A stretch of DNA of 64,000 nt. Source: an uncultured Gammaproteobacteria bacterium. GTDB taxonomy: Bacteria; Pseudomonadota; Gammaproteobacteria; HK1. The stretch covers positions 5,515,664 through 5,579,663 of the forward strand of contig OY282353.1 in assembly GCA_958295465.1 (NCBI GenBank), read 5' to 3'. The position numbers and the translations under genes were made by a program. Positions within the stretch are counted from its first letter, which is position 1; each line of letters starts with the position of its first letter. Positions 23,004-50,700 of this stretch are shown piece after piece. A model generated the notes under the pieces. It ran no database searches and was not told the DNA's origin. It saw only the letters and a list, made by a program, of their open reading frames with translations.

Positions 23004-23261
23004 TCACGCTGCCTGCCTTCGCCGCTCCTGCGCCAGATCGTAAGACGCTTGCAGGCGCATCCAATACTCGGCGTTGCTCCAACCGATGCGCTCCAGCGCC
23101 AACGCCATTCTGGGCGAAATGCCGATATGTCCATGCAGCAGCCGCGAGAGCGTATTGCGCGTGACGCCGAGACGGGCGGCAGCTTCCGTTATCGTCCAGC
23201 CGACCGCCTCCAGACTGTCGATGAGCGTCTCGCCGGGATGCGGAGGATTGAACATGGGCAT
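23004..23261 (-). CDS. higA: HigA-family antitoxin (XRE HTH)
   Basis: 85 aa. [39 protein letters not shown] is typical of the HigA/VapI antidote family. It lies directly downstream of higB. Confidence 0.85.
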
Positions 23262-23273
23262 GGTGCGTGTCCT

Positions 23274-23546
23274 CTAGTGGTAATCGATCAGGTCCACGTC
23301 CACCGCCTCGCCATCGACGAAGCGAAAGACGATCCGCCAGTTTCCGGAGATGCGCACGCTCCATTGACCGCGCCGGTCGCCTCGCAACGGATGCAGCCTA
23401 TAGCCGGGCCGGTCCATGTCCCCCGGTTCGCGCGCCGGCTCAAGTGCGTGCAGCACACGCCGAATGCGCTCGACATGGTCGGGGTTCAGCCGCCGGGCGT
23501 CGTCTCGTTCGTAGAGTCTCCGTAGCCCGATGTGCCTGAACTTCAT
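23274..23546 (-). CDS. higB: HigB-family toxin (RelE/ParE superfamily, plasmid maintenance system killer)
   Basis: 90 aa, MKFRHIGLRRLYERDDARRLNPDHVERIRRVL...GQWSVRISGNWRIVFRFVDGEAVDVDLIDYH. ATG at 23546. Confidence 0.85.
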   Translation of the reverse strand: MKFRHIGLRRLYERDDARRLNPDHVERIRRVLHALEPAREPGDMDRPGYRLHPLRGDRRGQWSVRISGNWRIVFRFVDGEAVDVDLIDYH

Positions 23547-23767
23547 GTAACCACACTCTGCCGCGCAACGCGAGATGTTGCGAGTACTCTTTCCGTACCT
23601 TTGTCCGACACCCACACTCAGCCGATGGCCGTATTCGGACGAGTCGTCGCGGCGGCGCGCCGATTCGCTATCGGGAGTCCACGGTGAGGGAGTGCCGGGA
23701 CTTATGGAACAGGCGGATCGCCCGAATGGTTGCAGGAATTTGCCGCGATGCGCCCGCCGGCCGGCGC

Positions 23768-24919
23768 TCAGTACGAGCGCGGGAGCCCGAGCACATGCTC
23801 GGCGAGGTAGCTCAGCACGAGGTTGTTGGAGATCGGAGCGATTCGATAGAGCCTCGTCTCGCGGAACTTGCGCTCGACGTCGTACTCCTCGGCGAAGGCG
23901 AAGCCGCCGTGGGTCTGCATGCACGTGTCCGCCGCCCGCCACGACGCCTCCGATGCGAGCAGCTTCGCCATGTTCGCCTCCGCGCCGCAGGGCTCGCCCG
24001 CCTCGAACAGCTCCGCGGCGCGCCCGCACATCAGGGCGGCCGCCTCGGTGGCGGCGTACGCCTCGGCGATCGGGAACTGGATCCCCTGGTTGCGGCCGAT
24101 GGGGCGGCCGAAGACGTTGCGCTCCTTCGCGTAGTCGCCGGCCTTGCGTATGAACCACCGGGCGTCGCCGATGCACTCGGCGGCGATCAGCACGCGCTCG
24201 GCGTTCATCCCGTCGAGGATGTAGCGGAAACCCCGGCCCTCCTCTCCTATGAGGCTGTCGGCGGGGATCTCCACATCGTCGAAGAAGACCTCGGTGGTCG
24301 AGTGGTTGATCATGGTGCGGATCGGGCGGATCTCCAGGCCCCTGCCCTTCGCCTCGCGCATGTCGAGGAGAAAGACCGAGAGGCCCTCGGTCCGCTTCTT
24401 CACCTCGCCGGCCGGGGTGGTCCGCGCGAGCAGGAGCATGAGGTCGGAGTGCTCGGCGCGCGAGGTCCACACCTTCTGGCCGTTGACCACGTAGTGCGAG
24501 TTCCCCTTCTTCACCGCGGTGGTGCGCAGGGCCAGCGTGTTGCTGCCGCTCGTCGGCTCGGTCACCCCGAACGCCTGCAACCGCAGCTCGCCGGATGCGA
24601 TTCCGGGCAGGTAGCGCCGTTTCTGCTCCGGGCTGCCGTGACGGAGCACCGTGCCCATCGTGTACATCTGGGCGTGGCAGGCGGCGCCGTTGCAGCCCGC
24701 CCGGTGGATTTCTTCGAGCACCGCCGCGGCGGCGGAGAGGGGCAGCCCGCTGCCGCCGTATTCCTCGGGGATGAGGATGGAGAGATACCCCGCCTCGGTG
24801 AGCGCCTGCACGAACTCCGTCGGGTAGGCCCGCTCACGATCGAGCACGCGCCAGTACCCGCCGGGGAAGCGTTCGCAGAGCTTCCCGACCGCATCGCGGA
24901 TTTCGGGCCAGTTCCTCAC
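23768..24919 (-). CDS. Acyl-CoA dehydrogenase family protein
   Basis: 383 aa with ACAD-fold motifs throughout (FGVTEPTSGSN, GRGFRYILDGMNAERV, RETRLYRIAPISNNL). The GTG start overlaps the upstream stop (GTGA). Confidence 0.9.
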   Translation of the reverse strand: MRNWPEIRDAVGKLCERFPGGYWRVLDRERAYPTEFVQALTEAGYLSILIPEEYGGSGLPLSAAAAVLEEIHRAGCNGAACHAQMYTMGTVLRHGSPEQKRRYLPGIASGELRLQAFGVTEPTSGSNTLALRTTAVKKGNSHYVVNGQKVWTSRAEHSDLMLLLARTTPAGEVKKRTEGLSVFLLDMREAKGRGLEIRPIRTMINHSTTEVFFDDVEIPADSLIGEEGRGFRYILDGMNAERVLIAAECIGDARWFIRKAGDYAKERNVFGRPIGRNQGIQFPIAEAYAATEAAALMCGRAAELFEAGEPCGAEANMAKLLASEASWRAADTCMQTHGGFAFAEEYDVERKFRETRLYRIAPISNNLVLSYLAEHVLGLPRSY

Positions 24920-25020
24920 CGTGGGCCTCCCCGCTCCATGCGCAGCCAGGCCGCGGTGCCGTCGCGGGCCACTTCGCAGAGCTTCCCGACCGCATCGCGG
25001 ATTTCGGGCCGGTGCCTCAC
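24916..25020 (-). other. Chimeric 34-codon mini-ORF 3
   Basis: GTGA overlap with mini-ORF 2 and with the ACAD start. Encodes MRHRPEIRDAVGKLCEVARDGTAAWLRMERGGPR. Confidence 0.3.
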
Positions 25021-25121
25021 CGTGGGCCTCCCCGCTCCATGCGCAGCCAGGCCGCGGCTCCGTCGCGGGCCACTTCGCAGAGCCTCTCGACCGCGTCGCG
25101 GATTTCGGGCCGGTGCCTCAC
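25017..25121 (-). other. Chimeric 34-codon mini-ORF 2
   Basis: GTGA overlap at both ends. Encodes MRHRPEIRDAVERLCEVARDGAAAWLRMERGGPR. Confidence 0.3.
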
Positions 25122-25222
25122 CGTGTGCCTCCCCGCGCCATGCGCAGCCAAGCCGCGGTGCCGTCGCGGGCCACTTCGCAGAGCTTCCCGACCGCATCGC
25201 GGATTTCGGGCCGGTGGCTCAC
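25118..25222 (-). other. Chimeric 34-codon mini-ORF 1 created by the tandem repeat
   Basis: GTG start overlaps the rhodanese TGA. Encodes MSHRPEIRDAVGKLCEVARDGTAAWLRMARGGTR: the ACAD N-terminus joined to the rhodanese C-terminus. Confidence 0.3.
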
Positions 25223-26943
25223 CGTGGGCCTCCCCGCGCCGTGCGCAGCCAGGCCGCGGTGCCGTCGCGGGCCACTTCGCCGGGCAGCGCGATCTCCCAG
25301 TCGAGGTAGTCGTTCATCGCCTTCTCCATGCCTCCCTCGGCCTCGTGGATGGGGACGAGGACGTCGTCGGGATCGTCGAGGTAACGCGGTTCGGCGGCGG
25401 TCAGCGGATACCCCGCCGCGGCCCACGCCGCGTTGCCGCCTTCGAGCGCCCGCACCGGGGCATCGACATATGCCGCGGCTTCCGCGGCGGCGAGGCGGGC
25501 CAGCGCGCCGCCGCCGGAGGTGAACACCAGCATCCGCCCGGAGTGCCGGCCGCCGAGTGCCCGGGCGAGCCCATCACCCGCCTGTCCGCGGACACCCGGA
25601 TCAGACCGGTCGTCGAATGCCCGGCCAAGCCTCGCCCGCACCGCGTGGCAGGCCCCGGGAATGTGCCCGGCCCGGTAGGCGCGGCTCAGCGAGACGTCCA
25701 CGACGTCCGCTTCGCCACGGTCGAGCGCCGACGCGAGCGCATCGGGGGCGATGCCGGTGATTGTCGCGCCGCCCGCGATGCGGGTCGCCGCCGCGAGCGC
25801 GCCGGAGGCGACCCTCTCCATGCGTGCCTCGTCCATCCCGAGCACCGGCGGCACGAGCATCCCCGTGTCGAGCGCATGACCCTCGATACCCCCTTCGAGC
25901 ACCACCGCGTCGCGCCAGCCCATCTGTACCAGCCAGGAGGCGGTCATCGTTGCCCGCACTCCGTCGTCATCCACCAGAACGATGCGCGAGCGCAGGGTCC
26001 CGGCGTGCCGGTCCGTGGCCTGCACGAGCTGCCCGCCTGCGACCCAGCGCGCGTCGGGCAGATGCCCGGCCTCGTACTCTTCGCGGGTGCGGACGTCGAA
26101 CACGAAGAGCGAGCGCACTTCGGACTCTGCGCGCCAGCGGTCCAGCGTGGCGCGATCGATGCCGCGCACCCCGAAGCGTTCCGCGACCCGTGCCGCCGCG
26201 GCCTTCGCCTTCGCGGCCCCGGCCGCCGACGGCCTCGCGGCGTGCTCCGTCGCGCCCTTGGCGAGATCGAACCCCGCGAGATGCCACGCCATGGTGCCGT
26301 TGCGCAACGCCACCACCCGGTTGGGCACGCCGGCGTTGATGATCGACTGCGCGCCGATGATGCTCCGGGTGCGGCCCGCGCAATTCACGACCACCGTCGT
26401 CTCCGGCGACGGCGCGGCATCGTGCACGCGGTACGCAAGCTCGGCGCCGGGACAGCAGCGCCCGCCGGGGATGCTGAAGTTGGTGAACTCGGGGGAGGGG
26501 CGGCTGTCGAGGATGACCGGATCCTCGCCAGCATCAAGCATCGCCCGAAGCTCTTCGGCGGAAACCGACGGGGTGCCGAAGGCGTGCTCGACCACCTCGC
26601 CGAATGCCTTGCTCGGGACGTTGACGCCGCTGAAGAGGACGTAGCCGGCCGCGGCCCAGGCGGCGATGCCGCCTTCCAGCACCGAGACATCGGTATAGCC
26701 GAGTCGATCGAGCCTCGCCGCGGCCCGCGCCGCCTCGCCCGCCCCCGCGTCGCACGTAACGACCCGTGCACCGCGGCGCGGAACGAGGAGCGGGGCCAGC
26801 CGTTCGAGCCTCGAAAGGGCGCAGCAGCTCGCGTAGAAGAGATGCGACTCGGCGAAGCGCCGCTCCTCGCGCGTATCGAGCAGCGCAAGCTCCCGATCGT
26901 CGAGGATCATCCGCTTCAGCTCGCTTGCGGTCACCGTCTTCAT
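25219..26943 (-). CDS. Four-domain rhodanese (sulfurtransferase) protein
   Basis: 574 aa from MKTVTASELKRM, with four rhodanese-like repeats. Only domain 2 shows a catalytic loop (VVVNCAGRTRS). The other three carry D, or no Cys, at that position. Confidence 0.8.
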   Translation of the reverse strand: MKTVTASELKRMILDDRELALLDTREERRFAESHLFYASCCALSRLERLAPLLVPRRGARVVTCDAGAGEAARAAARLDRLGYTDVSVLEGGIAAWAAAGYVLFSGVNVPSKAFGEVVEHAFGTPSVSAEELRAMLDAGEDPVILDSRPSPEFTNFSIPGGRCCPGAELAYRVHDAAPSPETTVVVNCAGRTRSIIGAQSIINAGVPNRVVALRNGTMAWHLAGFDLAKGATEHAARPSAAGAAKAKAAAARVAERFGVRGIDRATLDRWRAESEVRSLFVFDVRTREEYEAGHLPDARWVAGGQLVQATDRHAGTLRSRIVLVDDDGVRATMTASWLVQMGWRDAVVLEGGIEGHALDTGMLVPPVLGMDEARMERVASGALAAATRIAGGATITGIAPDALASALDRGEADVVDVSLSRAYRAGHIPGACHAVRARLGRAFDDRSDPGVRGQAGDGLARALGGRHSGRMLVFTSGGGALARLAAAEAAAYVDAPVRALEGGNAAWAAAGYPLTAAEPRYLDDPDDVLVPIHEAEGGMEKAMNDYLDWEIALPGEVARDGTAAWLRTARGGPR

Positions 26944-27094
26944 CGGTCTTCCCTCGATCCCGGCCCGTGGCCTGCGTGGTAAGGGGTGATCGGGCCGTCC
27001 GGGGGCCACGCAGGACTGTCCCGGGACTCTTCGCCTTGCGATGGCAGGGCGTCGCCCATCCGAGGCTCGCGGACTTCCGGGTGGTTCTGCCCGC

Positions 27095-29350
27095 TCATCG
27101 GACGCTGGTCGTTTGCAGGTACGACCGGTATCGCTCGCGGATCTCGCGCACGTACTTGACGACTTCATGCCCACGCACGTAGCCGAAGGTGGCCTGCCGG
27201 TAGTAGGCACGCTTCGACAGCAGCAGCATCGCCTCCTCGACGTTGTCGAACCAGCGGTCGGGGTCGAGGCCCAGCTCGCTCGCGAGCCGGCGCGCATCGC
27301 GCACGTGCCCGAACCCGGCGTTGTACGCGGCCAGTGCGAACCAGATCCGATCCTTGACGGCGAGTTCCGGATCGAACCGGGAGTGCAGCCACGCGAGGTA
27401 GGCAACGCCGGCTCGAATCGACTGCTCCGGATCGCGCAGATCCTCGACGCCGAACTCCCTGGCGGTGCGCGGCAACATCTGCATCAATCCGATCGCGCCG
27501 GCGAGAGACCTGGCCTTTCGATTGAACCCGCTCTCCTGATACATCTGAGCGACGATGAGCGGCCAGTCGAAGCCATGCGTCGCCGCTTCACGCTGGACGA
27601 TGGCATCGTAGGGTGAAAGTCCGTCGGCGTGCTCGTGATCGACGCGGCCCTCACGATGGCGTCGCATTCGAACCGGATTCTCGAAGTACTTCTGATAGAC
27701 GACGTTGAAGAAGAGTCCGCGGTACTCCCTGGCCAGAAACGCGTCCAGGGCGGCGAGCAGCTCCATGCTCTCGGCGCGCACCGCCCATCCGAGCGCGACA
27801 GGCCCGCGCAACGTGAATGCCTTGCGGACATCGGCCCGATAGCCGAGCTCGATGTCGAGCACGTGACTCGCGGCCATGGTGAGGTCCAGACGCCCCTGCG
27901 CCACCTCGGCGATCAACGTCTCGGTCTCCGCATCCTCCGGCGCGGCACGGATATCGAGCTTCAGGCCGGCGTCACGGAGCCGCTCGAGGGTATGCCAGTG
28001 GGCACTGCTCCGGCGCACCGTCACCGCACGCCCGCCGAGATCCTCGATTCCGAGAATCGAGTCGTCGTGCCGGGCCACCAGGTAGTCATGGACGTAGTTG
28101 AACGGGCGCGTCATCGCCACCCCCGGCAGGCGCAGCGCCATGTCGGTCGGCAACGATGCCGCGGCCACGTCGCCGATGCCTCCTTCGAGCATCTCGAACA
28201 GCGATGCGTGGCGCGGCGCGATCACCACTTCCAGGTGCAGGCCGAGCTGCTTCGCGAACTCGCGCAGCAACTCGTACTCGAAGCCCATCTGTTCGCCACG
28301 CCACAAGAAGAAGGTCGCCGCGTTGTTTCGGGTGATGACGCGCAGCACGCCGCGGCGCAGGATCTCGGGCAGATCGCCGGAACGCTCGGTGTGCGCCAGA
28401 CGCGCGAGCTGCTCCAGCGAGAGAAATCGGTTGAGCGCTTCGAGCAGGCTCGGCGCCCGCGCGTTGACCGCCCACGCCACCGCGTCGCTGCTGAACGGCT
28501 GGGAGACGGTTCGCAGGTCGGGCCACTCGTCCTCGAGCGTCTCGCCGTCGCCGACATTGACCGCCGCCATGTCGAGCCGGCCTTCGGTGACGTCCGCCAG
28601 CAGTTTCTCCGCCGGCGTGTTCTCGGGCACGAGGCGGACCCCGATGTCCGGATGGTCGCGACGCGCGCGCTGCACGAGGCGCCAGAACGAGGACCGCTCC
28701 CGGAGCGCTATCTCGCGCCCTGCCTGATCGCCGAAGGATTCGAACCGGTCGCCCTTGCGCACCACGATGTGCTCGCGGGTCCGATGGACGGGAACGGTAA
28801 AGGCGACCATCCTCTTGCGCGGCTCGGTGACGGTGACGTCGGCGGCGACGAGGTCGCCCTTGCCGGCGACCAGGGAGCGAATGAGTGCGTCCCAGCGCTC
28901 CACCCGCACCCAGTCGACGTCGAGATAGTGCTGCTCGGCGAAGCGGCGGATCAGGTCGCGATGGAGCTGCGACGAGCCGGCGAGGACGCCGCCGGCGTGG
29001 TGGACCTCCGCGTCATGGCTTGGAACGATGACGGTGAGGGTTCGTCCCGGTGCAATCAGCTCGAGGGGCGAGTCCGAGGACTTCCCCACCGTTTCCATCT
29101 GTGCGTGCAAACCGGGCGGGCCGCCGGCCGCCAGCAGCCCGGCGCCAAGGAGAAACGCGAGCGGGGTGGCATGGAGTGGGTGCGACGTCGTGGAGACGTT
29201 CGTCCCGCACCCCTCATGGTTCTCCCCTGAATCCACTTCTCCCGCGGCCCCGCGATGCCGGAATCGGGCGCCGGTCCGTGAATTTCTTCGACGTGCCGCA
29301 AGGGATTTCAACCGGAAGGAGCCGGGGGCGTCGTGTCGAGTCGCAGGCAT
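27095..29350 (-). CDS. MltF-like lytic transglycosylase with two solute-binding (SBP_bac_3-like) domains and C-terminal SLT domain
   Basis: SLT motifs are present: AQMYQESGFN (catalytic E-S), GLMQMLP, AYNAG. Start codon uncertain (candidates 29350 or 29419). Confidence 0.7.
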   Translation of the reverse strand: MPATRHDAPGSFRLKSLAARRRNSRTGARFRHRGAAGEVDSGENHEGCGTNVSTTSHPLHATPLAFLLGAGLLAAGGPPGLHAQMETVGKSSDSPLELIAPGRTLTVIVPSHDAEVHHAGGVLAGSSQLHRDLIRRFAEQHYLDVDWVRVERWDALIRSLVAGKGDLVAADVTVTEPRKRMVAFTVPVHRTREHIVVRKGDRFESFGDQAGREIALRERSSFWRLVQRARRDHPDIGVRLVPENTPAEKLLADVTEGRLDMAAVNVGDGETLEDEWPDLRTVSQPFSSDAVAWAVNARAPSLLEALNRFLSLEQLARLAHTERSGDLPEILRRGVLRVITRNNAATFFLWRGEQMGFEYELLREFAKQLGLHLEVVIAPRHASLFEMLEGGIGDVAAASLPTDMALRLPGVAMTRPFNYVHDYLVARHDDSILGIEDLGGRAVTVRRSSAHWHTLERLRDAGLKLDIRAAPEDAETETLIAEVAQGRLDLTMAASHVLDIELGYRADVRKAFTLRGPVALGWAVRAESMELLAALDAFLAREYRGLFFNVVYQKYFENPVRMRRHREGRVDHEHADGLSPYDAIVQREAATHGFDWPLIVAQMYQESGFNRKARSLAGAIGLMQMLPRTAREFGVEDLRDPEQSIRAGVAYLAWLHSRFDPELAVKDRIWFALAAYNAGFGHVRDARRLASELGLDPDRWFDNVEEAMLLLSKRAYYRQATFGYVRGHEVVKYVREIRERYRSYLQTTSVR

Positions 29351-43476: not shown

Positions 43477-43656
43477 GGGCTTGGAGCTCGTCCGACAGAC
43501 GCTTCGGAGAGGATGGGGTCATCTCGGCAATTCCGGGCCTGGAATCTCGCGTATCCGCCGCCAATCGTGGCCCAGAACGCGGCTGAGTGCCCGCGGTGCG
43601 GCGGCAGCGTCGCGTTCCTCCCTCTCCGAAGCGTCTGTCGGACGAGCTCCAAGCCC
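43477..43656. repeat. Perfect 36-bp inverted repeat flanking a 108-bp spacer, bracketing the stop codon of the 2393-aa gene
   Basis: 43477-43512 GGGCTTGGAGCTCGTCCGACAGACGCTTCGGAGAGG is the exact reverse complement of 43621-43656. Confidence 0.95.
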
Positions 43657-46600
43657 GCCGTAAAGCGGCGAATTCCCGGAAGAGGGTCCGGCGCCGGGAT
43701 AGACCCCCAAGCCGGCGGGCGCCAAGCCGGCGGCGAGCGATGACCAGACCTGCCGTCCCTCGGCGCTACCCGGAGCCGAGGCGGCGAAGCAATCGGTGTC
43801 AACGACGGCAAGGTCCACCTTCCCTTTCATGCTCGCAATCGCTTCGGCCGCCGAGTCCGGGTCCCGACCATGATATACCACATGAAACATACGTGCTCCG
43901 AGCGCCTTCCCGAGAGCCGGATCCATGGTGAGAAGCACCGCATGACCGCCTCGGTGTGTCCGCCAATCATGGGCGAGTCTCTGGAATACGCTCCGTCCGA
44001 ACGGTGTGGAGCCGCATCGAGCACAGGTCCCTGCATCCTCCAGAATACTCGCCGATTCCGCGTTGCAGACATTGCAACAGGCCCGGCGGCCGTTCCGGCG
44101 TGTATCAAGAAGACCCCGGGCGGTTTCCAGGGTCAGCGGATGCGCTACCACGGTATGCTCATCCAGGACGGCGGACAGGGTAGGAAGGGTCTTCACCGTC
44201 AAGGAAGCTACCTCACCGATCGCGCCCAGCTCCTCGCCTTGGCTCTCCAGGAAATAGCTGAACTCCACGTCCATGTTGTTCTGGGGAGTTTGTTCGGAGA
44301 AGCCGCCATGACGACCGATCACCGAGCGGCGGATGATGTAAACCCCGCCCTGGACGTGAGTAAAGACCCAATCGGGATTGCGTTTGGCGAATTCCTGGTT
44401 CCTGAATCTGGCGAAGTCGGGATGGCCGACGATCTCGCGCCCCAGGGTAAACCTCGGCAGATGGGTGCGGTATCCGGCCATCGCATGCCCCGGATTTCGC
44501 CGCATGTGATCGATGAGATACCGTTCCCAACCATGCTTCCCGACAAACGCTTCCTTGCTGCAAAGGTAGATGGAGAAACTCGCATCGCCGAGCGCCATCG
44601 CCATGTTGGAGGCCGGCCCGCACAGCAGGTTGTCCTTCAGGAAGACCAGGCGGACGTTCGACCTGCCGGTGCAGAGCTCGATCAGCTCCCGACGAAAATC
44701 CGGATCGCTGTTGTTGTCGATGATCGTCAACGTGAAGGGCGTGGTGGTGTGCCGCAGGACGCGCCGGATGATCTCGAACGTTTCCGCGCGGTTCTCGTAT
44801 TCCGCCGTGTTGTAGGTGACCATGAAGACGTCCACGGGACGGCTTTGCCAGACGTCCACGTAGTTTCGGAGGGTACGCTCGGTGCCGGCGTGTCTGCGCA
44901 GGAAGTTGCGGGCCTCCGACAACATGGCCTCCCGCCGTTCGGGAGTCATGGCGAGAAGCCGGCGAACGCCGTCCACCAGGCTGTGCGGGTCTCCAGGGGT
45001 CACCAGGATGGCCTCGGCCATGTCCCGCAGATAGTCCGGCACCGCCGAAACGGCGCTTGCGATGACCGGGCGGCCCGCCGCCATGGCCTCGAGAATCACC
45101 GTGGGGAAGCCTTCCCTGTCGCCGTCGGCGGCGACGATGCTCGGAACCACCAGGAAATCGGCTTCCCCGATTGCCGCCGCTACGGCCTGGACGCCGTCGA
45201 GCGGCCCCTTGATGTTGACGTTCTCGATGCCGAGCTCCGCGAGCTTCTTGCGACAGGAGGTTTCCAACGGTCCGTAACCGTAGACGTCGAAAGCAACGGA
45301 GGTTCCCTGCAACCGAGCGGCGGCGTCGATCAGGACCTCGATTCCCTTCTTCTCGATGAAACGGCCGATGAGGATTCCCCTCCTGACTTCGGACGGCGGC
45401 GAAGGGAAGTCCGCCAGAGGCGGGATCTTCTCGAACTCGGAAAGATCGACGGCCTGCATGTTGAAGGCGATCTTCTCGGCCGGCACGCCCTGCTCTTCGA
45501 GAAAGCGGCGATGATGATCGCCGTAGACGAATACCTTGAGGCACCGAGGGTCCCGGACGACTTCCGCGATCCGATTTCGGTTCCTGTTGTGATCGTGGAA
45601 AATGTCCACTGCATGAGCAAACAGGGTGAAAGGTATGCCGGTCGCCTTGCTGGCCGGCCAGGTCAGGGCATGCGCGGCAGGCGCCGCAAAGTGCGTATGG
45701 CACAGCGTGCGTCCATCCCGGATCAGGAGCTTGGCCAGATGCGTTGCGTCGCGCACCCGGTGGGCATCGATCTCGAAGTCCGGCTCGGCGGCGCGATCCG
45801 GTTCGATTCTGAAATAAACGGCCACGTCTTGTCCGTTGCGAACGAGCCAGCGAAGCTCCTCCAGTACGAAGGTTTGTGAAAGCGCCGGCCAATCCCAGAG
45901 GACATAAGCCAGCTTGATCGGAACGATACCATGTCGGATCCGCTCTGCCGCATGTTTCCTCAAAACGCGTTTCATATTGGCGCCGAGATCCACCGTGTGG
46001 GTGATGTTACCGAGTTCCGCCTTGCCAAGATAATAGTCCGCTCCGACATAAGGAACGAAAACAGGACTGTATCGCCTTGTAACGGATATGATGAAATCCC
46101 AATCGACCAGACGGGTCAGATCCACATCGAATCCGCCATTTTGCAGATAGACGTATCTCCGGTGCATGAAGGTGTTCAGATCGATGAAATTCTTAATCAG
46201 GAGTTCCGCCCGATCATAAGGTACGGAATGGATGTAATCGGCGCCGGAATCCAGGTTATGGAGATGAAAGGCCGCATAGGCCGTAGCAACTTCCCTTGCG
46301 CTGGAAAACAAGGCCGCCATTACCAGCAGATAATCCCTGCGCCAGGTATTGTCGCTGTCCAGGTATGCAATGAGATCACCCGTCGCGCTCTTCAAGCCGG
46401 CGTTTCTCGTATCGCATACCCCGGTGTGAGACTTCTCGATCAGCCTGACAATTCCCGAATTTATTTCGGCTGCGAATCGATCGCGTACGACATCTCGGCT
46501 TGAATCGTTGCTCCCGTCGTCTACGACGATGATCTCATGAGGCATGTACGACTGCGCGAGAACCGATTGTATGGCCCTGCATATGAACTTCTCCCTGTTC

Positions 46601-49600
46601 CATACCGGCATGATCACGGAAACGGTCGGTCGCTCCTCTGCAAGCTCCCGCTCCGCAATTTCCCTGATGCCGCCCGGTAGATCTTCCGCCGCAGTATTTC
46701 CGAATCTCTGAAGCTCCTCGATCAGTCGATTCCGCGGCCTCCGGAGATGCGACAGATCAGGTCCGTGTACGAGCTCGCCCACATCGAACTGCCCACCGAA
46801 ATCCATGCTCGCGAAATCCATGCTCGGCATCGACTGAAATCCCTTATGCACGCCGATCCGTAGATGGAAGAGCAGAGGATTGATCCCGCTCGATGCGGCT
46901 TCAGGATAGCGGGACAAGTAGGAAATCCCATTGAAGTCCTTGCTGGGTTGGCGTTTTTCATGCCAGCCCTGGGTGCAATAGTGGCTGAGTGGATCGACAC
47001 CGGAGGAACGAACGTCCGGATTTGCTTCGAGGTAGTACTTCTCATCGAAAAAACCGGACCGCCGAACTTCATCTATGTCATCGGCCATGCTCGGAATGTG
47101 ATCGGGCCATTCTTCATCGCCATCGACGCTCGAGGGATGATGACCGGAAGCGGTCCCGATGGGAGCCGTAGCGGTCACGTTGAACCCGGATTCCTTCACG
47201 AGCAGGCCCATGACCCTCTCGATGGCGTGCTGCAGACATCCATCCGTCTGGCCTGCCTCCACTTCGAATTGTTCCGGATCGATCAGCTCCTTGTCCATGA
47301 GCCCCTTCAACGATGCGACTCGAAACCAGAACATCGAACCGGCGGAGAAGTCGAAGTTATAGGAGCCGATCAGATCTGCTCGCCCAATTTTTCGTAGCAG
47401 CTTGTCCAGCCAGTAGTGGTTACTGATGTGACGTTGCCTCTTCGATAGATCCACCAGAGACCCCCGGGGAACGATCATGCCCAGCTTCTCGTCTCGTGAG
47501 AACTCGCGGGTGATCTCTTCGATATCCGTCTTCAGTAAAGCATCCAGAAGCCTTTTGCGTATCGCATCGCCGTCATTTCTATATTCCGTCTTCTTGGTGT
47601 GTATCTTGCAAGCCGTTTCGTAACCACGTTCGACCAGGAGAGGATAGATCTTCAGGAAGGGGCGAATATCGCGTCCGCGATTTTCCAACATCATCATGTA
47701 CAGGTTGGGGAACTTCCCGCGAATCCTGGCTATTGTCGCCATGGAGACGGATTCGTGCACCGTCACGAACATGTCGATCTTGCCGGCGATCGGATCCAGG
47801 TACTCTGTAATAATGTCGTCTACGAGGTCTTCGTAATATACGTGAAATATCACGCAAATGTCGTTCGATTTCTTGAATCTTGCATTTATCTCTTCAATCA
47901 GATTCCTTCTGCTCACCGTTTCGAGGGCGGATCGGGTCGCCTGCAGATATGCGTGGCCGTATCGCTGATCCGGCTCCAGGTAGGCACCTTCCGCCCACTC
48001 GTTCCAGGCGTTGATGAACACCAGCCTCTCGTCCCCGGTACGGCGCGCACATGTCCGTTCCATGACACCCCGCAACCACTTCTCGTACGCACCGGGGCTC
48101 GCGCCGTGAAAAATGGTAGCCGAGTCCCGTCTGCGAGCCGTGTTGTCCCAGTCAGGAGCTACACAATGGAACCTCGTGATATGGTCCGGAATGTCCGCTT
48201 CCAAGCGTCTCTCGACAAGCTTGGTGTAGCTCCGAACCGATCCGGCGTAATTGGGATTCAGTTTTCGTCCCGGTATCCCGATGCCAAGATCGTGCGAACC
48301 GTGGGGCGGATATTCGACAATAGCATCCATACCGTAGATCGCCGGATCGGTATCGACGCGCTCATATTCGAACGATGCGACCATGGCCAGATATAATTCA
48401 CCAACGCCTTCCTCTCTGCAGAGCTCACGCCAGCTACGCACGGTGGATTGAATATCGGGAAACAACCCGATCCTGTAGACCAGGAACAGGGGTTTCCCAT
48501 CTATTCGTATGTAGTTGGGGTGCCTGAAGTACCGAATCACATCACGCATGGCCTCCAAATCGTCCTCAGCGTGATGCCGCTGAGCGAGCAGTATCTCACC
48601 CTCCTTCCCGTCCCAGCGTCGGGTCCAGGGTTCATTTGCCCATGACAGGCAGAAGGGAAAATCCGGCTTGCCGGTCGCGAGCATTCTCTCGATCGGCATT
48701 TCCAGCAGGCGCCGCCCCTCGAACCAATAGTAGTGATAGCAGAAACCGTGGATTCCGTAGTAGCGCGCAAGAGCCGCCTGCCGCTCCATTACTTCGACGA
48801 TTCGCAAATCGTAGAAGCCGAGGTCCGCGGGGAGACGGGGTTGATAGTGTCCTTCGAATTGGGGAGCTGCCTTTCCGACGTTCGTCCATTCCGTGAAGCC
48901 TTGTCCCCACCACTCGTCATTTTCAGGAATCGGATGAAACTGGGGCAAATAGAACGCGATCAGTTTCACGGACAGGGATTCCGGATCGATCGGATCGGTA
49001 CATTTCGCGACGTGCGATCCCGACCGGGAATCTGCAACCTCCAGCGGACGGTATGGCTTAGGACGTGGATTCGATCCGTGCGAATCCATCCGTGGGTGAG
49101 ATTCGCCCCCCCAGTTGCGCTCGGCGACCGCTTCGCTCAACCCCTGGATGCGCCCGTTGCGCTCCGCGGCTTTCCTGGCATGAGCGAAGTCCTCCCACGC
49201 GCGGTAGGCGTCCGTGTATCGAAACAGCAGCGGGGCAGATCGGAAGAGCTCCTCCTTGATGCGCATCTTGACCGACCAGGGAAGTGGCAATCGGTAATAG
49301 AGCCATTGAGCGGTCAGACTTGCGATCGTGCGCGCCTTCGACACCGGCCTCTGTATGACATGTCGCTGCAAGCTTCGAAGCGGAGCGGTGATCCGCCAAC
49401 TGTTGGAGCCGTACAGGGCCGCGATCTCGTCTCCACGCCGGTCCAAGGCCTCGTTCAACTCCTCGATGCGCCCGTCGCGCTCGGCGACCATCTCGCTCAG
49501 CCCCTCGATGCGCCCGTCGCGCTCGGCGACCATCTCGCTCAGCCCCTCGATGCGCCCGTCGCGCTCGGCGACCATCTCGCTCAGCCCCTCGATGCGCCCG

Positions 49601-50700
49601 TCGCGCTCGGCGACCATCTCGCTCAGCCCCTCGATGCGCCCGTCGCGCTCGGCGACCATCTCGCTCAGCCCCTCGATGCGCCCGTCGCGCTCGGCGACCA
49701 TCTCGCTCAGCCCCTCGATGCGCCCGTCGCGCTCGGCGACCATCTCGCTCAGCCCCTCGATGCGCCCGTCGCGCTCGGCGACCATCTCGCTCAGCCCCTC
49801 GATGCGCCCGTCGCGCTCGGCGATCGATTGTTCGCAGTCGGCAATGTAGCGGCTGAAGAGCGGTGTCGCTTCGTCGAAAGCCGATCTGATTCGATCCAGC
49901 AATGCGATATCCGTCTCGCAAACCTCACCGCGACTCCATCGATTGAACAATTCGAAGCACTGCCCAAGCCAGCGTGAGAGTACGGGATTCGTCAGAAACG
50001 TCGCGTCGTCGGACTGATGATGGTGCAGCTCGGGAGAGAGGAATCGCTCGATCTTCGCATGAGCATGAACCGACGCGCGCTTCGGCCACGAAACGTCGAG
50101 GTCCCGTCCCAGACGATCCGTGATCGCGTGCGGTTCGGAGAGAAGCGTCTCGTAACGCAAACATGCGCGCTTGAGGTTCCGCGATCCCGATTCCGCTTCC
50201 AACACGTGCCGCAGCCAGATGAGATGCCCGCAGGAAACGCCGATTCCATCGCGTTGCTTCAGTGACGTGGCCACGTCGAGGGGATTGCGGATGGGTAATA
50301 CGACTCGAGGCTCGGCGCCGAACGTTTCCAGCGCCTCGATCCAGAAGGGGAGCAATCGGCATAGACGAGGGTCTTTCACCACGAATAGCCGGCTGTCGCC
50401 GAATTCCCGGTGGAGCAACACCTGGGCCCGTTCCCGGAACGGGCCGGCCGTCGGGGAAGCATACCAACCCGGATCGAAGGGTCGCCAATCATTCCAATCG
50501 GAATCCGAGGACCACAGAATATCCCGATTCAGCTCCCAGATCGGTCGAGACTCCCAGAATCCTTCATCGTTGTTGTCGGGAACGGGCTCCATCAAGGTCT
50601 TCGGCAGGTCGCACCCCTCCAGATTCAATACGCGAGACAGGGCCGAGGTGCCGCTCCGGTGCATGCCGGCGACGAGGATCGCGATCTTTCGATGGGACAT
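43519..50700 (-). CDS. 2393-aa multidomain polysaccharide synthase: sulfotransferase, coiled-coil repeats, WbsX-like, RgpF-like, GT2, GT4, GT2, Zn-ribbon tail
   Basis: N-terminus GMHRSGTS plus RNPLDVATS (PAPS-binding motifs). [14 protein letters not shown] x8. [25 protein letters not shown] (WbsX). [20 protein letters not shown] (RgpF). [24 protein letters not shown] (GT2). [20 protein letters not shown] (GT4). [15 protein letters not shown] (GT2). CCNVCN..CARCGS (Zn ribbon). Confidence 0.85.
49444..49821 (-). repeat. In-frame tandem repeat: 42-bp unit, 8 identical copies plus 1 degenerate copy
   Basis: GACCATCTCGCTCAGCCCCTCGATGCGCCCGTCGCGCTCGGC starts at 49486 and then every 42 nt to 49780. 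The degenerate unit at 49444-49485 encodes [14 protein letters not shown]. Confidence 0.95.

Follow-up and report, generated by a model that had tools for sequence, protein, structure and literature searches.

The variable number tandem repeats (VNTRs) described so far are for the most part coding repeats that stay in frame or simple intergenic ones. The MIRU-VNTRs of Mycobacterium tuberculosis (MIRU, mycobacterial interspersed repetitive unit) are tandem units of 40-100 bp located inside operons, and their copy number varies among strains (PMC12548453, PMC2734929). Each MIRU contains a short co-oriented open reading frame (ORF) that has a 4-nt overlap with the downstream gene, an arrangement which is thought to minimise the effect of the repeat on downstream expression (PMC12548453; PMC2734929). 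We analysed a stretch of 64,000 nucleotides from an uncultured gammaproteobacterium (contig OY282353.1, positions 5,515,664 to 5,579,663 of the forward strand; hereafter the window) in which the junction between a rhodanese gene and an acyl-CoA dehydrogenase (ACAD) gene is present in four tandem copies, with three mini-ORFs between the two genes. We classed this array as a junction-derived, ORF-chaining VNTR, and its comparison with related loci made it likely that it is a minisatellite born from the gene junction itself, the mini-ORFs being tolerated by-products.

Tandem Repeats Finder reported the array with a period of 101, 4.0 copies, 93% matches, no indels and a score of 727, and the same 101-bp register was recovered by a separate direct-repeat search (repeat D1). 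The copies are arranged head to tail and the unit is longer than the 10 bp from which a VNTR or minisatellite is counted. Each unit is made of the last 53 nt of the rhodanese gene (the tail) followed by the first 48 nt of the ACAD gene (the head). The elements of the locus, with the basis of each assignment, are the following.

25219..26943, minus strand: rhodanese gene, 574 aa from MKTV (Pfam PF00581, four stretches, E=4e-49)
25118..25222, minus strand: mini-ORF 1, 34 codons and TGA, VSHRPEIRDAVGKLCEVARDGTAAWLRMARGGTR (translation and GTGA check)
25017..25121, minus strand: mini-ORF 2, 34 codons and TGA, VRHRPEIRDAVERLCEVARDGAAAWLRMERGGPR (translation and GTGA check)
24916..25020, minus strand: mini-ORF 3, 34 codons and TGA, VRHRPEIRDAVGKLCEVARDGTAAWLRMERGGPR (translation and GTGA check)
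23768..24919, minus strand: ACAD gene, 383 aa, GTG start (Pfam Acyl-CoA_dh_N, _M and _1)
24872..25280, minus strand: array of 101-bp units, 4.05 copies (Tandem Repeats Finder, repeat search and unit table)
25275-25175, 25174-25074, 25073-24973 and 24972-24872, minus strand: the array units in the tail and head register (unit table)
25229..25233, minus strand: Shine-Dalgarno-like motif GGAGG, 6 nt upstream of the first GTG (direct reading)
25128-25132, 25027-25031 and 24926-24930, minus strand: identical copies of GGAGG (direct reading)
25276..25280, minus strand: GCGAA microhomology in the rhodanese gene, with its partner in the ACAD gene at 24872-24876
25175-25179, 25074-25078 and 24973-24977, minus strand: GCGAA at the three novel joints (direct reading)

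The gene order on the minus strand is therefore rhodanese, mini-ORF 1, mini-ORF 2, mini-ORF 3 and ACAD. The GTG of mini-ORF 1 overlaps the TGA of the rhodanese gene (at 25221-25219; the start of this gene, MKTV at 26943, was placed by comparison with homologues), and the TGA of mini-ORF 3 overlaps the GTG of the ACAD gene. All four junctions in the window are intact GTGA overlaps of 4 nt between co-oriented ORFs, and each of them has a GGAGG upstream with a spacer of 6 nt. Because 101 + 4 = 105, every extra copy amounts to 34 codons and a stop. The novel joint between the array units brings CTCTGCGAA against GTGGCC, and a 49-nt probe laid over this joint gave three matches in the window when none was expected from shuffled sequences. 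No further copy of the 101-bp unit was found elsewhere in the 64-kb window. These results confirmed the anatomy given in the initial annotation, which was made from the sequence alone: four 101-bp copies of the rhodanese end, the GTGA and the ACAD start, with three 34-codon ORFs and intact junctions. That annotation also gave MR(H/N)(R/W) as the start of the mini-ORFs, which is only partly right, as the N and the W at codons 3-4 belong to the true ACAD start while the mini-ORFs read (S/R)HR.

The related loci (L081 to L092) were taken from contigs fetched by a search for rhodanese homologues. Eight other long-read metagenome contigs, which their record names suggest to be hifiasm-type assemblies, carry the same rhodanese-ACAD locus. 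Several of the relatives' contigs are circular with a size of 5.7-6.1 Mb, and the proteins of the window itself are recorded from a contig of 5.68 Mb. The number of junction copies in each is given below.

L081: one copy, the single-copy allele
L091 and L092: two copies each, on contigs of 5.7 and 5.9 Mb
L083: two copies, in a different (sister) species, 91-94% nucleotide identity in the flanking genes
L090: three copies, on an indel-rich contig
window: four copies
L088 and L089: four copies each
L087: five copies

Strains of the same species, whose flanking genes are 97-99% identical, carry 1, 2, 2, 4, 4 and 5 copies next to the four of the window, so the copy number at this one locus differs among related strains, as it does in a VNTR. 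The novel junction, GCGAA followed by GTGGCC, is common to all arrays. L090 was left out of the reliable set since its alignment with L088 opened 24 gaps per 2.6 kb, and its premature stop (TGG to TGA) was not counted as decay because the contig is unreliable; the reliable set then consisted of eight assemblies with 16 internal units.

Comparison of the window with the single-copy allele L081 showed that both genes are 98-99% identical and that the neighbours are the same, namely an SLT/solute-binding gene, rhodanese, ACAD, a HigB toxin, a helix-turn-helix (HTH) antitoxin and DctM. The single junction of L081 has the tail and the head contiguous, with one GTGA and nothing extra, and the ends of the two flanking genes thus explain the whole 101-bp unit. 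GCGAA is found once in the rhodanese gene and once in the ACAD gene of L081, exactly 101 bp apart. Microhomology at the end points is what is expected of slippage or illegitimate recombination. In the related lineages L082, L084 and L085, and probably in L086, the ACAD gene has been lost while a 5' stub of it is kept after the rhodanese stop (L082, 6843-6870; L084, 4255-4270; L085, 3612-3650; L086, 1687-1730, a stub whose codon 4 is an in-frame TGA and within which the contig ends). As these ACAD-less lineages keep the stub after the rhodanese overlap, the rhodanese-ACAD junction is ancestral and the ACAD gene is dispensable.

We propose that in the ancestral operon the TGA of the rhodanese gene overlapped the GTG of the ACAD gene in a GTGA, the Shine-Dalgarno sequence of the latter lying inside the rhodanese tail, and that slippage or illegitimate recombination between the GCGAA pentamers 101 bp apart would have duplicated this junction. 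In this reading, unequal exchange or gene conversion among the units has since expanded, contracted and scrambled the array, leaving the one to five copies of the conspecific strains. Codon 4 of the ACAD head is CGG in 16 of 16 internal heads and TGG in eight of eight true heads, and the presence of this same pattern in L083 argues that the arrays arose once, ahead of the separation of the two species, and expanded and contracted afterwards. The four-gamete test was failed by 43 of the 105 informative site pairs, so the units are mosaics of the sort that unequal exchange or gene conversion would produce. Internal and true ACAD heads have variants in common at head positions 26, 34 and 37.

Tests of selection were made on the internal units of the reliable contigs, in which 21 distinct variants were counted, 16 of them nonsynonymous and five synonymous, with no stop. 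The expected synonymous fraction being 0.30, this gave an omega-like ratio of 1.4 and no excess of synonymous changes (P=0.81), so the bias towards synonymous sites among copies that had been considered beforehand did not appear. Between the window and L083, the body of the ACAD gene shows 40 synonymous and 15 nonsynonymous codon differences. Among the changes seen in the internal heads are W4R, I>T, R>H, D>G and V>A. We compared them with 80 ACAD orthologue loci from species-representative genomes (71-80% identical), which were used for N-terminal conservation only: these orthologues never have R at position 4, where H, Y, I, F, L or W is found, and the motif I-R-(D/E)-A-V is near-invariant. 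Variation of the true ACAD heads is confined to sites that are variable in the orthologue N-termini, plus one synonymous site. Judged by these substitutions, the mini-ORF peptides are without purifying selection. Twelve of the 21 variants fall at codon position 2, and changes that are synonymous in frame +2 were in excess (P=0.019 before correction over six frames), which we judged not significant; the GC-rich composition of the genome is a plausible cause.

The integrity of the relay was evaluated by a neutral simulation in which 9-10 random substitutions were placed in the 303 internal bases (nine are observed), and all starts, stops and frames were kept in about 0.55 of the runs. For this reason the intact relay of the window, which the initial annotation had taken as a hint of maintenance, is not evidence of selection. 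In the relatives the GTGA is not invariably kept: TG is missing from one GTGA in a common allele, which occurs in L087, L088, L089, L090 and two additional contigs whose fused units P0153 and P0154 are 67 aa long. The deletion leaves a 99-bp unit and fuses two mini-ORFs exactly in frame into one ORF of 67 aa.

The anatomy of the unit suggests why extra copies may be tolerated. With a length of 101, which is 2 modulo 3, each extra unit rebuilds a complete initiation region (GGAGG, 6 nt, GTG) and opens a 34-codon ORF ending in the next GTGA, and the last unit keeps the initiation region of the ACAD gene unaltered for at least 53 nt upstream. Ribosomes could terminate and reinitiate, or load anew, at each junction, and the mini-ORFs are probably translated, as by-products. 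With ribosomes still supplied to each ORF in this way, the duplication would be nearly harmless, with little or no polar effect, and could persist and would probably drift as an ordinary minisatellite. We infer this from the anatomy and from what is known of coupling at 4-nt overlaps (reviewed in PMC12548453).

Other origins of the array, and other uses of it, were weighed against this reading. Mis-assembly is a well-known hazard of tandem repeats, but an assembly artefact or a very recent slip in one genome can hardly be entertained when the window's units are distinguishable from one another (differing pairwise at 4-8 of 101 positions), when the array of about 400 bp is far below the span of long reads and when the same junction occurs in at least seven other contigs from two assemblies. 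The initial annotation had argued against a fresh slip, and it was right in this, the same junction and the CGG marker being found in independent long-read assemblies of both the same and the sister species. It is highly unlikely that a mobile, dispersed MIRU-like element was inserted at the ACAD start codon. The architecture would fit such an insertion, given the -4 nt coupling of the ORF, the tandem repetition of a unit of about 100 bp and the variable number of copies (PMC12548453, PMC2734929), and at all window junctions the co-oriented ORF of the unit has a stop that overlaps the downstream start by this -4 nt spacing, as in the definition of MIRUs (PMC12548453). However, the contiguous gene ends of the single-copy allele account for the whole unit, the head has homologues in the ACAD N-termini of 80 genomes without the rhodanese neighbour, the tail is homologous to rhodanese C-termini, and the 64-kb window holds no dispersed copy. 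A small-peptide role had been among the suggestions of the initial annotation, in the form of functional proteins of 34 aa or 67 aa. In its favour, the Shine-Dalgarno sequence and the start of each mini-ORF are good, and in none of the reliable contigs is an ORF interrupted. Nevertheless, nearly every unit encodes a different peptide, a single-copy junction leaves its strain without any mini-ORF and hence without the peptide, the internal heads alter residues that are conserved in the 80 ACAD orthologues, and the counts of nonsynonymous and synonymous changes given above go against constraint. A concatenated query of 68 aa matched only three proteins among 5.8 billion, all from this locus. These findings contradict such a role, which is very improbable.

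The initial annotation had also suggested a tuning of the translational coupling between the two enzymes. In an adaptive rheostat, the number of reinitiation steps or of extra ribosome entry sites would set the output of ACAD or the ratio of the two enzymes and provide a heritable tuning. Copy number is indeed polymorphic in co-occurring strains, the chain of ORFs is unbroken in every reliable array, the frame-preserving TG deletion included, and GGAGG is kept in nearly all units. There is also precedent, since the copy number of VNTR3239, a repeat that lies upstream of fpg1 in M. tuberculosis, is related to the level of fpg1 mRNA (PMC2734929) and the ORFs of MIRUs are coupled at a spacing of -4 nt (PMC12548453). 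On the other hand, disruptive changes are not depleted (about 0.4 stops and 0.9 GTGA hits were expected among the 21 variants, and no stop was seen), ACAD is dispensable and deleted in related species, and no large effect is expected because ACAD keeps its own initiation region, unaltered, in the last unit. We therefore hold the rheostat to be unlikely, and it is similarly doubtful that copy number affects the expression of ACAD. Still less probable, in our opinion, is a selected, copy-number-tunable ribosome relay in which uninterrupted translation is required and the relay steps set the output of ACAD relative to rhodanese, even though such a relay would explain why the length of the unit is compatible with the frame, why the TG deletion preserves the frame and why GGAGG is conserved. 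Several observations do weigh against a nearly neutral minisatellite. The ORF chain is unbroken in eight of eight reliable assemblies; the sole indel seen fuses the ORFs in frame, an outcome that only about two of some 100 conceivable 2-bp deletions in a unit would give; and GGAGG is near-invariant, with one variant in the GGGGAGG motif among the 16 internal units. Together with a frame-compatible length, which has a chance of one in three, these could reflect selection for uninterrupted translation through to ACAD, although the numbers are small, the loci are not independent of one another and the window was chosen for its intact relay. In addition, the CGG/TGG difference at codon 4 (unit position 63) stays fixed despite the other variants shared by internal and terminal heads, and drift alone explains this incompletely; the pattern suggests short-tract conversion combined with selection for W4 in ACAD, which does not explain it fully. 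On balance, the minisatellite with tolerated mini-ORFs remains the reading that we favour.

The array was also examined for other functions. It folds no better than shuffled sequences (z=+2.0), which led us to reject an RNA element, and it has no match to Rfam families. A promoter or terminator carried by each unit was rejected as well, no sigma-70-like promoter and no intrinsic terminator being present in or beside the array.

Several searches concerned the distribution of the locus. Exact-pattern scans of JGI metagenome contigs gave no match, either for the junction or for the tail, and a rhodanese of this kind was upstream of the ACAD gene in none of the 80 orthologue loci. The closest ACAD orthologues are alphaproteobacterial, the host being a proteobacterium of 64% GC, and a search of plasmids returned distant ACAD matches only.

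The genes around the array were compared as well. An ORF of 52 aa without Pfam hit (26940-27098, minus strand) lies between the SLT/solute-binding gene and the rhodanese gene, with ATGA overlaps at both ends (27098-27095 and 26943-26940), so the whole operon is chained by 4-nt overlaps. This ORF is called in L081, L088, L091 and L092 and is absent in L082. Directly downstream of the ACAD gene, a HigB-like toxin (PF05015) and HTH antitoxin pair (about 23004-23549, minus strand) is present in the window, L081, L088, L091 and L092, and L087 and L089 are without it and have DctM directly after ACAD. On the plus strand, antisense ORFs of 200-656 aa run over the rhodanese gene, the ACAD gene and the array (25012-26982, 23684-25309 and 24921-25523); they are taken to be typical shadow ORFs of GC-rich DNA, without sign of being genes.

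Other tandem repeats were observed in the window. The rhodanese gene has an internal VNTR of 60 bp (20 aa, GGRSDPGVHGQAGDGLA.AF; window 25555-25614, codons 444-463), with no copy in the homologue P0004, one in the window and P0003, two in P0001 and four in P0002, and the lengths of the rhodanese proteins step through 534, 554, 574, 594 and 614. Two copies would seem to be the usual state, as 13 of the 15 listed cluster members are 594 aa long. The rhodanese gene also contains a diverged direct duplication of 60 bp (25726-25811 and 25753-25818; repeat D9, spacing 60), which corresponds to an insertion of about 20 aa (ERVASGALAAATRIAGGATITG) that is absent from P0002, P0003 and P0004. A second array, at 49450-49823, has a 42-bp unit in 8.9 copies that are 99% identical and is located inside the minus-strand ORF 43519-50700, where it encodes in frame about nine copies of a 14-residue repeat in a product of 2393 aa; its near-identity suggests a recent or homogenised coding VNTR. 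Tandem duplications of 40-100 bp seem to arise readily in this lineage.

The junction array is a clean natural case in which a tandem duplication over a stop/start overlap repairs itself. Every copy brings back a ribosome-binding site and a start, followed by an open frame that closes in an overlapping stop, and the downstream gene retains its native initiation context. The allelic series of one, two, four and five units, together with the in-frame fused variant, in near-identical strains constitutes a test set for the efficiency with which termination-reinitiation passes through successive short ORFs. The array is also a warning for annotation, since intact coupled mini-ORFs need not encode functional peptides.

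Compared with known systems, the array is like bacterial minisatellites in having GCGAA direct repeats at the ends of the duplication, head-to-tail units, copy numbers that vary among strains and mosaic units. It is unlike most VNTRs in that it spans a stop/start overlap and so forms a chain of separate ORFs in a coupled arrangement. It resembles termination-reinitiation coupling at ATGA or GTGA, every junction being a GTGA with an upstream GGAGG, the upstream operon being likewise chained by ATGA, and the single-copy relative L081 having the same GTGA overlap. To our knowledge, however, coupling has been described between two real genes or between one upstream ORF and a gene, whereas up to four consecutive short ORFs, putatively coupled, are interposed here. 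As in contingency loci, the number of repeats changes heritably, and the variation in copy number that the initial annotation had suggested, in proposing such a locus as one possible role, was found (one to five copies). The phase-variation sense of the term does not apply: the unit is of 101 bp and not of 1-8 bp, and all observed alleles, with units of 101 or 99 bp, leave ACAD with its start, its Shine-Dalgarno sequence and the context of its frame. As the downstream frame is neither shifted nor turned off by a change in copy number, there is no ON/OFF switch, and the array is for this reason not a contingency locus. Literature searches gave nothing specific to junction-derived tandem duplications. 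The closest analogue is the MIRU-VNTR, for example that of the senX3-regX3 intergenic region, a likeness in the described architecture. The MIRU ORF reportedly overlaps the upstream stop codon too (Supply et al., in 1997). MIRUs are mycobacterial, they form a dispersed family with 41 loci in H37Rv and they are apparently mobile, whereas the present unit comes from the ends of its flanking genes, in a proteobacterium, and was seen at one locus only in the 64-kb window. Duplication of an overlapping stop/start junction could be a mechanism by which MIRU-like repeats with coupled ORFs are born, and the locus shows that no mobile element is needed for an architecture of this kind, with ORF units at a -4 nt coupling distance, since gene ends can give rise to it on the spot.

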